From IMG/VR virus record IMGVR_UViG_2684622772_000002: a DNA stretch of 16,764 nt; one strand, given 5' to 3'. Below the pieces are notes generated by a model. The model searched no databases and was not told the origin of the DNA. It worked only from the letters and a program-made list of their open reading frames with translations. This stretch comes from a virus. Its lineage: Duplodnaviria > Heunggongvirae > Uroviricota > Caudoviricetes. Shown here in pieces: positions 258 to 16,073 of this stretch (position 1 is the first letter of the stretch; every line of letters starts with the position of its first letter). The translations under genes were made by a program, and so were the position numbers.

Positions 258-683
258 TTAGTGCGGAAATATTTGTGTAGTGTTCTGTATGTTCTCAGTA
301 AAGAGTAATGAATTATCAAAGGTATAGTAATACCTTTTGTTTTCGTGGATATTTGTAATCCATCTGAAAACCCCTGCTGTAGCAAGATTTTTCCTGTATT
401 CGTAAAATGATAACTCTCCTGATTTGAATCCTTTTAAGGTGGCTTCTATAAGGCATTTATTTTTTGAAAATCTTACATTTACAACCTTACCCTGTCCTTT
501 TATTAAAACCGTATTATCGTTTTCAAGAACAAGATGAATATTCTCTGTGGCTAAATAGTAAATGTAATGTGAGACATTGTGACGTTTTAGTTCAGAATAA
601 AACCAGTGATAGTTTAAATTATTTCGCACTTTATCGAATATTTGTTTAAAAATGGCAACCTGAGCCATTGTAGTACCTTCCAT
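258..683 (-). CDS. Hypothetical protein (141 aa, or 136 aa from the ATG at 668), AT-rich moron gene of unknown function
   Basis: Uninterrupted ORF in a segment that is conspicuously AT-rich by eye compared with the flanking phage DNA. It is antisense to the late operon. An AAGG Shine-Dalgarno-like element precedes the internal ATG at 668. The product is rich in Tyr/Asn/Lys, with no signal peptide and no motif I recognise. Confidence 0.55.
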
Positions 684-725: not shown

Positions 726-959
726 TCAATCTGGTCTAACCTGTTTTCTGAGCAATTCAGTAATGTCACTCTTTTCTTTGTTTGCTTCAGGCGAAACTCT
801 TTTTTCTGAGCACAGTCTCCGGCGGCAGGCTTCAATGACCCAGGCTGAGAAATTCCCGGACCCTTTTTGAACAAGAGCGATGTTAATTTGTTCAATCATT
901 TGGTTAGGAAAGCGGATGTTGCGGGTTGTTGTTCTGCGGGTTCTGTTCTTCGTTGACAT
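726..959 (-). CDS. Small ribbon-helix-helix-like protein (77 aa), resembling the YlcI/YnfO (DUF3950) proteins found next to terminase genes in E. coli lambdoid prophages
   Basis: ORF with ATG at 959..957. The Arg/Thr-rich basic N-terminus (MSTKNRTRRTTTRNIRFPNQ) followed by a predicted helix (MIEQINIALVQKGSGNFSAWVIEACRRRL) fits a beta-strand-helix-helix DNA-binding fold. The family assignment is from memory, not a search. Confidence 0.55.
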   Translation of the reverse strand: MSTKNRTRRTTTRNIRFPNQMIEQINIALVQKGSGNFSAWVIEACRRRLCSEKRVSPEANKEKSDITELLRKQVRPD

Positions 960-999: not shown

Positions 1000-1347
1000 G
1001 AAGTTGTTTTTACGTTAAGTTGATGCAGATCAATTAATACGATACCTGCGTCATAATTGATTATTTGACGTGGTTTGATGGCGTAGATGCACGTTGTGAC
1101 ATGTAGATGATAATTATTATCATTTTGCGGGTCCTTTCCGGCGATCCGACAGGTTACGGGGCGGAAGGCGCGCGGGTTTTCGCTATTTATGACAATTTTC
1201 CGGTTTAAGGCGTTTCCGTTCTTCTTCGCCGTAACCTAATGTTTTTATTTAAAACACCCCCTGAAAAGAAAGGAAACGACAGGTGCTGAAAACGGGCTTT
1301 TTGGCCTCTGTCGTTTCCTTTCTCTGTTTTTGTCCGTGGAATGAACA
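1000..1347 (+). promoter_or_regulatory. cos: cos region (cosQ-cosN-cosB), the DNA packaging and terminase recognition site
   Basis: Sequence 1000..1158 closely matches what I recall of the lambda right end (...GATCCGACAGGTTACG), and 1171..1347 matches the lambda left end (CGCGGGTTTTCGCTATTTATGA...), directly upstream of nu1. Exact boundaries of cosQ and the R/I1 elements are not resolved. Confidence 0.85.
1159..1170 (+). other. cosN: cosN 12-nt cohesive-end core, here GGGCGGAAGGCG
   Basis: Positioned between the conserved ...AGGTTACG and CGCGGGTTTTCGC... flanks. Lambda has GGGCGGCGACCT here; the window differs in the last 6 nt (see findings). Confidence 0.6.
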
Positions 1348-1867
1348 ATGGAAGTCAACAAAAAGCAGCTGGCTGACATTTTCGGTGCGAGTATCCGTAC
1401 CATTCAGAACTGGCAGGAACAGGGAATGCCCGTTCTGCGAGGCGGTGGCAAGGGTAATGAGGTGCTTTATGACTCTGCCGCCGTTATAAGATGGTATGCC
1501 GAAAGGGATGCTGAAATTGAGAACGAAAAGCTGCGCCGGGAAGTTGAAGAACTGCGGCAGGCCAGCGAGACAGATCTCCAGCCAGGGACTATTGAGTACG
1601 AACGCCATCGACTTACGCGTGCGCAGGCCGACGCACAGGAGCTGAAAAATGCCAGAGACTCCGCTGAAGTGGTGGAAACCGCATTCTGTACTTTCGTGCT
1701 GTCGCGGATCGCAGGTGAAATTGCCAGTATTCTCGACGGGATCCCCCTGTCGGTGCAGCGGCGTTTTCCGGAACTGGAAAACCGACATGTTGATTTCCTG
1801 AAACGGGATATCATCAAAGCCATGAACAAAGCAGCCGCGCTGGATGAACTGATACCGGGGTTGCTGA

Positions 1868-1893
<26 letters not shown>
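1348..1893 (+). CDS. nu1: Terminase small subunit (181 aa)
   Basis: Near-identical to lambda Nu1 (MEVNKKQLADIFGASIRTIQNWQEQGMPVLRGGGKGNEVLYDS...), same length, and its 3' end overlaps A as in lambda. Confidence 0.96.
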
Positions 1894-5574
<3,681 letters not shown>

Positions 5575-7291: not shown

Positions 7292-8317
7292 ATGTCGATG
7301 TACACAACCGCCCAGCTGCTGGCGGCAAATGAGCAGAAATTTAAGTTTGATCCGCTGTTTCTGCGTCTCTTTTTCCGTGAGAGCTATCCCTTCACTACGG
7401 AGAAAGTCTATCTCTCACAAATTCCGGGACTGGTAAACATGGCGCTGTACGTTTCGCCGATTGTTTCCGGTGAGGTTATCCGTTCCCGTGGCGGCTCCAC
7501 CTCTGAATTTACGCCGGGATATGTCAAACCCAAGCATGAGGTGAATCCGCAGATGACCCTGCGTCGCCTGCCGGATGAAGATCCGCAGAATCTGGCGGAC
7601 CCGGCTTACCGCCGCCGTCGCATCATCATGCAGAACATGCGTGACGAAGAGCTGGCCATTGCTCAGGTCGAAGAGATGCAGGCAGTTTCTGCCGTGCTCA
7701 AGGGCAAATACACCATGACCGGTGAAGCCTTCGATCCGGTTGAGGTGGATATGGGCCGCAGTGCGGCGAACAACATCACACAGTCCGGCGTCACGGAGTG
7801 GAGCAAGCGTGACAAGTCCACGTATGACCCGACCGACGATATCGAAGCCTACGCGCTGAACGCCAGCGGTGTGGTGAATATCATCGTGTTTGACCCGAAA
7901 GGCTGGGCGCTGTTCCGTTCCTTCAAAGCCGTCAAGGAGAAGCTGGATACCCGTCGCGGCTCTCATTCCGAGCTGGAGACAGCGGTAAAAGACCTGGGCA
8001 AAGCGGTGTCCTATAAGGGAATGTATGGCGATGTGGCCATCGTCGTGTATTCCGGACAGTACGTGGAAAACGGCGTCAAAAAGAACTTCCTGCCGGACAA
8101 CACGATGGTGCTGGGGAACACTCAGGCTCGCGGTCTGCGCACCTATGGCTGCATTCAGGATGCGGACGCACAGCGCGAAGGCATTAACGCTTCTGCCCGT
8201 TACCCGAAAAACTGGGTGACCACCGGCGATCCGGCGCGTGAGTTCACCATGATTCAGTCAGCACCGCTGATGCTGCTGGCTGATCCTGATGAGTTCGTGT
8301 CCGTTCAACTGGCGTAA
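7292..8317 (+). CDS. E: Major capsid protein (341 aa)
   Basis: From the ATG at 7292, MSMYTTAQLLAANEQKFKFDPLFLRLFFRESYPFTTEKVYLSQIPGLVNMALYVSPIVSGEV... is near-identical to lambda gpE and the same length. The track start at 7265 is an upstream extension. Confidence 0.96.
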   Translation: MSMYTTAQLLAANEQKFKFDPLFLRLFFRESYPFTTEKVYLSQIPGLVNMALYVSPIVSGEVIRSRGGSTSEFTPGYVKPKHEVNPQMTLRRLPDEDPQNLADPAYRRRRIIMQNMRDEELAIAQVEEMQAVSAVLKGKYTMTGEAFDPVEVDMGRSAANNITQSGVTEWSKRDKSTYDPTDDIEAYALNASGVVNIIVFDPKGWALFRSFKAVKEKLDTRRGSHSELETAVKDLGKAVSYKGMYGDVAIVVYSGQYVENGVKKNFLPDNTMVLGNTQARGLRTYGCIQDADAQREGINASARYPKNWVTTGDPAREFTMIQSAPLMLLADPDEFVSVQLA

Positions 8318-14260: not shown

Positions 14261-14586
14261 AAACCTTCCGCTGGAAAGTGAAACCCGGTATGGATGTGGC
14301 TTCGGCCCCTTCTGTAAGAAAGGTGCGCTTTGGTGATGGCTATTCCCAGCGAGCGCCTGCCGGGCTGAATGCCAACCTGAAAACGTACAGCGTGACGCTT
14401 TCTGTCCCCCGTGAGGAGGCCATGGTACTGGAGTCGTTTCTGGAAGAGCACGGGGGCTGGAAAGCCTTTCTGTGGACGCCGCCTTATGAGTGGCGGCAGA
14501 TAAAGGTGACCTGCGCAAAATGGTCGTCGCGGGTCAGTATGCTGCGTGTTGAGTTCAGCGCAGAGTTTGAACAGGTGGTGAACTGA
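14257..14586 (+). CDS. M: Tail tip assembly protein (109 aa)
   Basis: Same length and position as lambda gpM (MKTFRWKVKPGMDVASAPSVRKVRFGDGYSQRAPAGLNANLKTYSVTLSVPREE...). Overlaps the H stop and the L start. Confidence 0.94.
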   Translation: MKTFRWKVKPGMDVASAPSVRKVRFGDGYSQRAPAGLNANLKTYSVTLSVPREEAMVLESFLEEHGGWKAFLWTPPYEWRQIKVTCAKWSSRVSMLRVEFSAEFEQVVN

Positions 14587-15171
14587 TGCAGGATATCCGG
14601 CAGGAAACACTGAATGAATGCACCCGTGCGGAGCAGTCGGCCAGCGTGGTGCTCTGGGAAATCGATCTGACAGAGGTCGGTGGAGAACGTTATTTTTTCT
14701 GTAATGAGCAGAACGAAAAAGGTGAGCCGGTCACCTGGCAGGGGCGACAGTATCAGCCGTATCCCATTCAGGGGAGTGGTTTTGAACTGAATGGCAAAGG
14801 CACCAGTACGCGCCCCACGCTGATGGTTTCTAACCTGTACGGTATGGTCACCGGGATGGCGGAAGATCTACAGAGTCTGGTCGGCGGAACGGTGGTCCGG
14901 CGTAAGGTTTACGCCCGTTTTCTGGATGCGGTGAACTTCGTCAACGGAAACAGTGACGCCGATCCGGAGCAGGAGGTGATCAGCCGCTGGCGCATTGAGC
15001 AGTGCAGCGAACTGAGCGCGGTGAGTGCCTCTTTTGTACTGTCCACGCCGACGGAAACAGATGGCGCTGTTTTTCCGGGACGTATCATGCTGGCCAACAC
15101 CTGCACCTGGACCTATCGCGGCGATGAGTGCGGTTATCACGGTCCGGCGGTCGCGGATGAATATGACCAGC
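14586..15171 (+). CDS. L: Tail tip assembly protein L, 3' end lost in the assembly gap
   Basis: MQDIRQETLNECTRAEQSASVVLWEIDLTEVGGERYFFCNEQNEKGEPVTWQGRQYQPYPIQGSGFELNGKG... matches lambda gpL for 195 residues up to ...GPAVADEYDQ, then runs into the N-run. About 37 codons are missing. Confidence 0.9.
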
Positions 15172-15455
15172 NNNNNNNNNNNNNNNNNNNNNNNNNNNNN
15201 NNNNNNNNNNNNNNNNNNNNNNNNNNNNNNNNNNNNNNNNNNNNNNNNNNNNNNNNNNNNNNNNNNNNNNNNNNNNNNNNNNNNNNNNNNNNNNNNNNNN
15301 NNNNNNNNNNNNNNNNNNNNNNNNNNNNNNNNNNNNNNNNNNNNNNNNNNNNNNNNNNNNNNNNNNNNNNNNNNNNNNNNNNNNNNNNNNNNNNNNNNNN
15401 NNNNNNNNNNNNNNNNNNNNNNNNNNNNNNNNNNNNNNNNNNNNNNNNNNNNNNN
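15172..15455. other. Assembly gap: run of 284 N
   Basis: Contiguous N characters in the sequence. They replace the end of L, the L-K spacer and the start of K. Confidence 0.99.
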
Positions 15456-16073
15456 CCGGAGGCGTATTTCCGTATGTCGCCGGAAGACTGGCTGCAGGCA
15501 GAGATGCAGGGTGAGATTGTGGCACTGGTCCACAGCCACCCCGGTGGTCTGCCCTGGCTGAGTGAGGCCGACCGGCGGCTGCAGGTGCAGAGTGATTTGC
15601 CGTGGTGGCTGGTCTGCCGGGGGGCGATTCACAAGTTCCGCTGTGTGCCACATCTTACCGGGCGGCGCTTTGAGCACGGGGTGACGGACTGTTACACGCT
15701 GTTCCGGGATGCTTACCATCTGGCGGGGATTGAGATGCCGGATTTTCATCGTGAGGATGACTGGTGGCGTCACGGTCAGAATCTCTATCTGGATAATCTG
15801 GAGGCCACAGGGCTGTATCAGGTGCCGTTGTCAGCGGCGCAGCCGGGCGATGTGCTGCTGTGCTGTTTTGGTTCATCGGTGCCGAATCATGCCGCCATTT
15901 ACTGTGGTGACGGCGAGCTGCTGCACCATATTCCTGAACAACTGAGCAAACGAGAGAGGTATACCGACAAATGGCAGCGACGCACACACTCCCTCTGGCG
16001 TCACCGGGCATGGCACGCATCTGCCTTTACGGGGATTTGCAACGATTTGGCCGCCGCATCGACCTTCGTGTGA
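15456..16073 (+). CDS. K: Tail tip protein K with JAMM/MPN and NlpC/P60-like motifs, 5' end lost in the gap
   Basis: ...SPEDWLQAEMQGEIVALVHSHPGGLPWLSEADRRLQVQSDLPWWLVCRG... matches lambda gpK from about residue 50 to its C-terminus. The HSH-x7-S-x2-D JAMM metalloprotease motif is present, and a Cys/His-containing region (VTDCYTLFRDAYH...) follows. Confidence 0.9.
   Translation, partial: PEAYFRMSPEDWLQAEMQGEIVALVHSHPGGLPWLSEADRRLQVQSDLPWWLVCRGAIHKFRCVPHLTGRRFEHGVTDCYTLFRDAYHLAGIEMPDFHREDDWWRHGQNLYLDNLEATGLYQVPLSAAQPGDVLLCCFGSSVPNHAAIYCGDGELLHHIPEQLSKRERYTDKWQRRTHSLWRHRAWHASAFTGICNDLAAASTFV

Follow-up and report, generated by a model that had tools for sequence, protein, structure and literature searches.

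The 16,764-nucleotide stretch of viral DNA that we analyzed (IMG/VR record IMGVR_UViG_2684622772_000002, hereafter the window) carries what is probably a functional lambda-type cos site bearing a natural allele of the cohesive end, a reading to which we assign a probability of about 0.85. The 12-nt cohesive end, read directly from window positions 1159-1170, is GGGCGGAAGGCG, and that of lambda is GGGCGGCGACCT. Its immediate flanks are ...CCGACAGGTTACG on the left and CGCGGGTTTTCGC... on the right (in longer form, ...GGGTCCTTTCCGGCGATCCGACAGGTTACG and CGCGGGTTTTCGCTATTTATGACAATTTTCCGG...). The changes fall only in the half of the site that is known to tolerate change, so we regard the end as an ordinary natural variant and as neither a defect nor an error.

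Cohesive end and its differences from lambda

To place the end in register, we aligned the window without gaps to lambda/DE3, 2H10, Turner, PhiR70_1, and an Stx1a phage. Cohesive-end positions 7, 8, 9, 10, and 12 differ from lambda, while positions 1-6 and position 11 (a C) are the same. An earlier note on this DNA, made from the letters alone, had described a block in which five of the last six positions are changed, and both the direct reading and the ungapped alignment confirm that block. The note had put the site near 1148-1180, a range that takes in the flanks; the 12-mer itself could be narrowed to the twelve positions given above. The lambda 12-mer quoted in it is correct. Both lambda records, J02459 and NC_001416, match the window only once their base 13 is reached (the BLAST alignment between lambda and the window begins exactly at lambda base 13 and has 97.4% identity over 14 kb), and the DE3 record labels the homologous 12 bases as “cos site.” The note had also asked for an alignment to lambda and to other lambdoid cos sites, and the variant stands in that alignment; the canonical GGGCGGCGACCT is absent from the whole window, even with up to 2 mismatches allowed.

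The clustering of these changes is far above the local background. When the window is set against L045, the closest of its relatives to have the canonical core, the right half of the site differs at 5 of 6 bases, compared with 15 of 2,738 bases (0.55%) downstream. One of the changes, T12G, adjoins the predicted bottom-strand nick, and N15 carries the same base there.

Features of the cos region and neighboring genes

Table 1. Features of the window at and around cos
Feature	Position	Strand	Remarks
DUF1398 protein	258-683	-	Upstream of cos
DUF3950 YlcI/YnfO-type protein	726-959	-	Just upstream of cos
cosQ heptamer	1129..1135	+	GGGTCCT; packaging-termination signal; invariant in alignment
cosN (Feiss definition)	1157..1172	+	CG-GGGCGGAAGGCG-CG; 12 bp plus 2 bp on each side
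cosN left half	1159..1164	+	GGGCGG, same as lambda; half under strong functional constraint
cosN right half	1165..1170	+	AAGGCG (lambda: CGACCT); variant block
Predicted top-strand nick N1	between 1158/1159		By homology with lambda
Predicted bottom-strand nick N2	between 1170/1171		By homology with lambda
cosB R3	1208..1223	+	AGGCGTTTCCGTTCTT; identical to lambda (lambda bp 50-65)
cosB R2	1267..1282	-	AGAAAGGAAACGACAG; inverted copy of R1; exact boundaries assigned from the repeat
cosB R1	1308..1323	+	CTGTCGTTTCCTTTCT; perfect reverse complement of 1267-1282
Nu1, terminase small subunit	1348..1893	+	181 aa; 98.3% identical to lambda Nu1; full length
A, terminase large subunit and cosN endonuclease	1868..3793	+	641 aa; 99.4% identical to lambda gpA; full length

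The window shares with lambda cosQ, the CG flanks, GGGCGG, the register of the 12-bp stagger, the R3, R2, and R1 repeats, and the Nu1 and A genes; it departs from lambda in cosN's right half (Table 1). The heptamer that we take to be cosQ was named and positioned in part after PMC9026076, and it lies 23 bases before the top-strand nick, which is the lambda spacing. The CG pairs at 1157-1158 and 1171-1172, which flank both predicted nicks, are kept, and such CG dinucleotides are conserved on either side of cosN (PMC4669245). In the alignment, the interval between cosN and R3 contains no indel relative to lambda. The extent of R3 and the order of cosB, R3-I1-R2-R1 with R2 inverted, follow published work (PMC9026076).

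We also observed that the CGCGGG stretch to the right of the cohesive end is invariant in all other cos sites examined, Stx1a phages excepted: the Stx1a-converting phage Stx1_9793 has a canonical cohesive end but reads CGAGGG for CGCGGG at the homolog of 1171-1176.

We compared 19 head and tail proteins of lambda, as far as I, with those of the window and found them to be 94-100% identical, all of them full length save L. A run of 284 N at window positions 15172-15455 breaks the L tail gene and also affects the beginning of K. The “L-K” open reading frame of 495 aa at 14586-16073, which has Pfam matches to Phage_tail_L, Prok-JAB, and NlpC/P60, is a false fusion, an artifact of this run, and it was rejected as a gene. 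The window covers the prophage only in part. Upstream of cos, the DUF1398 and DUF3950 genes resemble the arrangement of DLP12/Qin-type E. coli prophages and are unlike the right-end genes of lambda.

Recurrence of the allele in other genomes

We found the exact GGGCGGAAGGCG in 78 IMG/VR contigs, in 31 contigs from metagenomes of human gut and of food, and in Escherichia sp. E1V33. For complete E. coli genomes, we performed a census using 39-nt queries that were able to seed on one allele only. This placed the variant in 155 of 5,426 genomes, at 166 places (150 chromosomal and 16 plasmid), and the canonical site in 4,105 genomes, at 7,427 places, 19 of them on plasmids. The variant thus makes up about 2.2% of lambda-type cosN copies in these genomes (166 versus 7,427 places). 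It is relatively enriched on 46-kb plasmid replicons such as pEC21Z151-46K (16/166, versus 19/7,427 for the canonical site). Besides the 46-kb plasmids, carriers include prophages in the chromosomes of E. coli strains that are unrelated to one another and were obtained from chicken, human, and surface water. A species-level scan returned few true cos matches, of which 1 was variant and 11 were canonical, several of the latter in non-enteric assemblies.

Two complete deposited phage genomes, PhiR46_1 and YDC107_1, carry the allele. YDC107_1 is classified in Ravinvirus. PhiR46_1 is an N15-like telomere phage, with telL and telR sites, ParA, and ParB annotated, and it has a full head and tail module of lambda type. 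As it is N15-like, yet has head, tail, and terminase genes that are about 99% lambda-like, this phage-plasmid is a mosaic that joins maintenance in the style of N15 to morphogenesis in the style of lambda. The host field of its record names ECOR13, which suggests that it was grown as a plaque-forming phage; no paper describing the PhiR phage series was found in the literature.

None of the 31 metagenome contigs begins at the predicted end; all 31 matches are internal and thus uninformative about physical ends. Among deposited phage records, we found none that starts with the variant 12-mer. The exact allele was likewise not found in the searchable text of the literature, where the one match was in an unrelated plant paper, leaving aside the 2017 survey by Vahanian, Oh, Sippy, and Feiss (Virology 509:140), which reportedly catalogs the cosN positions that vary among lambda-like phages and in which, according to the papers that cite it, conservation is high at the pairs beside the nicks and at the initial bases of the cohesive end.

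Two further observations came from these searches. One contig, IMGVR_UViG_3300045988_113976 (56,122 bases), has two copies of the variant cos (L157 and L165); a concatemer, over-assembly of a circular genome, or a pair of neighboring elements could account for this. In addition, exact canonical cos flanks turned up in non-enteric assemblies, namely those of Raphidiopsis brookii D9, Aeromicrobium sp., Archangium violaceum, and an Alicyclobacillus fastidiosus plasmid; these are most likely contamination with lambda DNA or cos vectors and not native prophages.

Spectrum of right-half alleles

To survey the variation at cosN more broadly, we ran scans of IMG/VR in which the right half was allowed to vary in part, while the left half and the flanks were kept constant; alleles of the forms CGAxCT and CGACxT with x other than C fall outside these scans. 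This yielded at least 12 right-half alleles, two of which are dominant: the canonical CGACCT (at least 121 in IMG/VR) and AAGGCG (78). The remainder were CAGGCG (4), CAGACG (3), AGACCT (2, and also present in phage PhiR70_1), TGACCT (2), GAGCGT (2), and AAGCGT, AAGGCT, CGACCG, CTGACG, and CAACCT (1 each). By direct reading, the first 12 bases of N15 are GGGCGGCGTCCG, giving a right half of CGTCCG. Together, the IMG/VR alleles and N15 indicate that the right half of cosN is variable in nature.

The left half behaved otherwise in the variant contigs. When positions of the left half were freed in the search, the same 78 IMG/VR contigs were returned, so GGGCGG is invariant in 78/78 of them. Freeing positions 8-11 also returned the same 78 contigs only, with no interior variants among the IMG/VR matches. 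Both common alleles are surrounded by one-step neighbors, and three-step gaps lie between the clusters; the rarer alleles form a partial link from one common allele to the other. Every allele is G+C rich; the two common ones each have 10/12 G+C, and their predicted duplex stabilities are similar (-18.2 and -17.8 kcal/mol).

Origin of the variant block

Differences between the window and L045, its closest canonical-core relative, cluster in the cosB region (window 1171-1345). In the closest such pair, the first 175 bases contain 8 of the 14 differences, a pattern that points to recombination over a short tract covering both cosN and cosB. Flanking SNPs are only partly linked to the core allele (r2 ≤ 0.49), and the cosB haplotype of the window is also paired with the canonical core in an Stx1a phage. 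We found AAGGCG in 26 flank haplotypes, some of them very different between cosQ and cosN, and paired with three types of R3: the lambda type, the CATGTCGG type, and the GGTGGTGG type. The block is most likely an old, diverged allele that would have been moved onto many backbones by short-tract recombination, while an origin by five fresh mutations in the lineage of the window is very unlikely. A small inversion of CGACCT was considered as another source and rejected: the inverted AGGTCG matches AAGGCG at only 4/6 positions, and intermediate alleles exist.

Comparison with known cos sites and proposed mechanism

Published genetics has established that cosN is functionally asymmetric, with mutations at bp 7-12 having minimal effect and those in the left half being severe (PMC4669245). 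For example, the Feiss laboratory found that G2C costs about tenfold and that C11G costs nothing (PMC4669245). Bound at R3, the small subunit fixes the large subunit in place to nick the bottom strand, and bp 7-12 are tolerant because this cosB-bound subunit positions that nick (PMC4669245, PMC9026076). The lambda large subunit is equally effective on the cosN of lambda and that of N15 (PMC4669245).

Natural variation follows the same asymmetry: relative to lambda, the changes are at bp 9 and 12 in N15 and phiD326 and at bp 8, 9, and 11 in Gifsy-1 (PMC4669245). The cohesive end of LLS and mEp213 is GGGCGGCGCGCT (PMC12315714). Variation in the window is confined to bp 7-12, as it is in N15, phiD326, Gifsy-1, and mEp213. 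The variant is therefore less surprising than the earlier note held, given that natural variation confined to these positions had already been published (PMC4669245). The note was correct that the lambda end is common to several lambdoid phages, but that end is not universal.

The individual cases resemble the window to different degrees. N15 and phiD326 are, like the window, right-half-only variants with a G at position 12, but they are two positions away from lambda (9 and 12) where the window is five; moreover, N15 relies on a simple cosB of its own, and its large subunit shares about 65% identity with that of lambda, whereas the terminase of the window is 99% lambda-like. Gifsy-1 and LLS/mEp213 likewise keep GGGCGG and vary within bp 7-12, but with other hexamers and with head genes unlike those of lambda. 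On the sequences compared, the window allele is further from lambda (five positions) than any of these published examples.

Based on homology with lambda, we propose that the terminase formed by Nu1 and gpA would bind cosB through Nu1, and that gpA would nick the top strand at 1158/1159 and the bottom strand at 1170/1171. Virion DNA would then carry a 5' 12-nt overhang, GGGCGGAAGGCG, at its left end and the complement at its right end. Nicking at bp 7-12 would be positioned by the anchoring of Nu1 at R3 and not by recognition of the bases. Weak constraint on bp 7-12 would follow from this anchoring, and so the same terminase could serve either allele. We infer that the site would be cut at the homologous positions, and efficiently.

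Alternative explanations

The earlier note had offered three readings, namely a real variant end, a degenerate cos in a defective prophage, and an assembly error; the first has held up, the second is disfavored, and the third is excluded. An assembly or sequencing error limited to the present record might be suspected, as the source assembly contains a masked or gapped stretch, the N run. However, the identical 12-mer recurs in the same register in more than 250 independent assemblies from varied projects and platforms, and closed genomes and phage records carry it as well; this recurrence leaves an error with practically no probability. A decayed cos, in which the right half drifted once selection for packaging was lost, is improbable. 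In its favor, cryptic elements make up the majority of lambda-like prophages in E. coli genomes, the window is itself part of a prophage with a run of N, and no physical ends were seen among the 31 metagenome contigs. Decay would, however, scatter lineage-specific changes over cos, and what we observed is one exact hexamer recurring, unaltered across the 26 flank haplotypes and in 3 cosB classes. The window retains cosQ, both CG flanks, and each of the repeats R3, R2, and R1 intact, and the lambda head and tail proteins are full length but for L, where the N run falls. The allele is also carried by complete deposited phage genomes. Terminase is intact at variant loci at least as often as at canonical loci: where the sequence extended far enough downstream, 43/50 variant loci versus 38/62 canonical loci had a lambda-type gpA that was full length and without gaps. 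A broken site thus appears unlikely from the sequences compared, and a functional cos with a natural variant end remains our preferred reading.

A real variant end could still differ from that of lambda in what it demands of the enzyme or in what it does for the phage. The variant might represent a nicking specificity of its own, with a terminase large subunit that has co-evolved to serve it, since 5/6 bases differ, including the base beside the bottom-strand nick, and the rotational symmetry of the right half-site with the left half is altered. We find this very improbable. The two allele classes have five different gpA and four different Nu1 sequences in common, and this occurrence of identical large and small subunits beside either allele is strong comparative support for use of the variant by a terminase that lacks adaptation to a particular cosN, so that a co-evolved enzyme would not be needed. 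The gpA sequences beside the two alleles are intermixed (98-99.8% identical to that of the window), a second gpA lineage, with about 65% identity to the lambda type, is likewise found with each of the alleles, and no gpA or Nu1 residue tracks the allele (the best column difference between variant and canonical loci was 0.41-0.42). Published data, too, reveal no cosN specificity between lambda and N15 (PMC4669245). Somewhat more credible, though still unlikely, is that CGACCT and AAGGCG mark mutually non-annealing groups of end compatibility that are kept by selection and not merely tolerated. Allele frequencies and the published cost of a two-base mismatch are the evidence that points this way. 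Two alleles dominate E. coli (7,427 and 166 places) and intermediates are rare; a 2-bp mismatch already cuts yield about fourfold (PMC4669245). With 5/12 bases mismatched, the two types of end would be unable to anneal; seven complementary positions would remain, six of them contiguous, and both alleles keep the same G+C content with similar predicted stability. Against this, shared ancestry and the design of the search weigh heavily on the counts, single-step and multi-step intermediates do exist, and drift at weakly constrained sites together with recombination explains the pattern without selection. If such groups were real, packaging between unlike cos sites would give ends unable to cyclize, and hence dead chromosomes, so that hybrids and rare alleles would be penalized; this would amount to a small selectable barrier inside an otherwise freely recombining lambdoid gene pool.

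Significance

As a probably functional lambda-type cos with a natural cohesive-end allele, the site carries little mechanistic weight, being a textbook-consistent case of the functional asymmetry of cosN. It has modest practical consequences: searching for the string GGGCGGCGACCT misses about 2% of E. coli lambda-type cos sites, and more of those on N15-like phage-plasmids, and neither lambda ends nor the usual cos oligonucleotides will anneal to AAGGCG-type ends. The natural variation collected here, with an invariant left half, at least 12 right-half alleles, and terminase proteins shared by the two dominant ones, agrees with the genetics of cosN.
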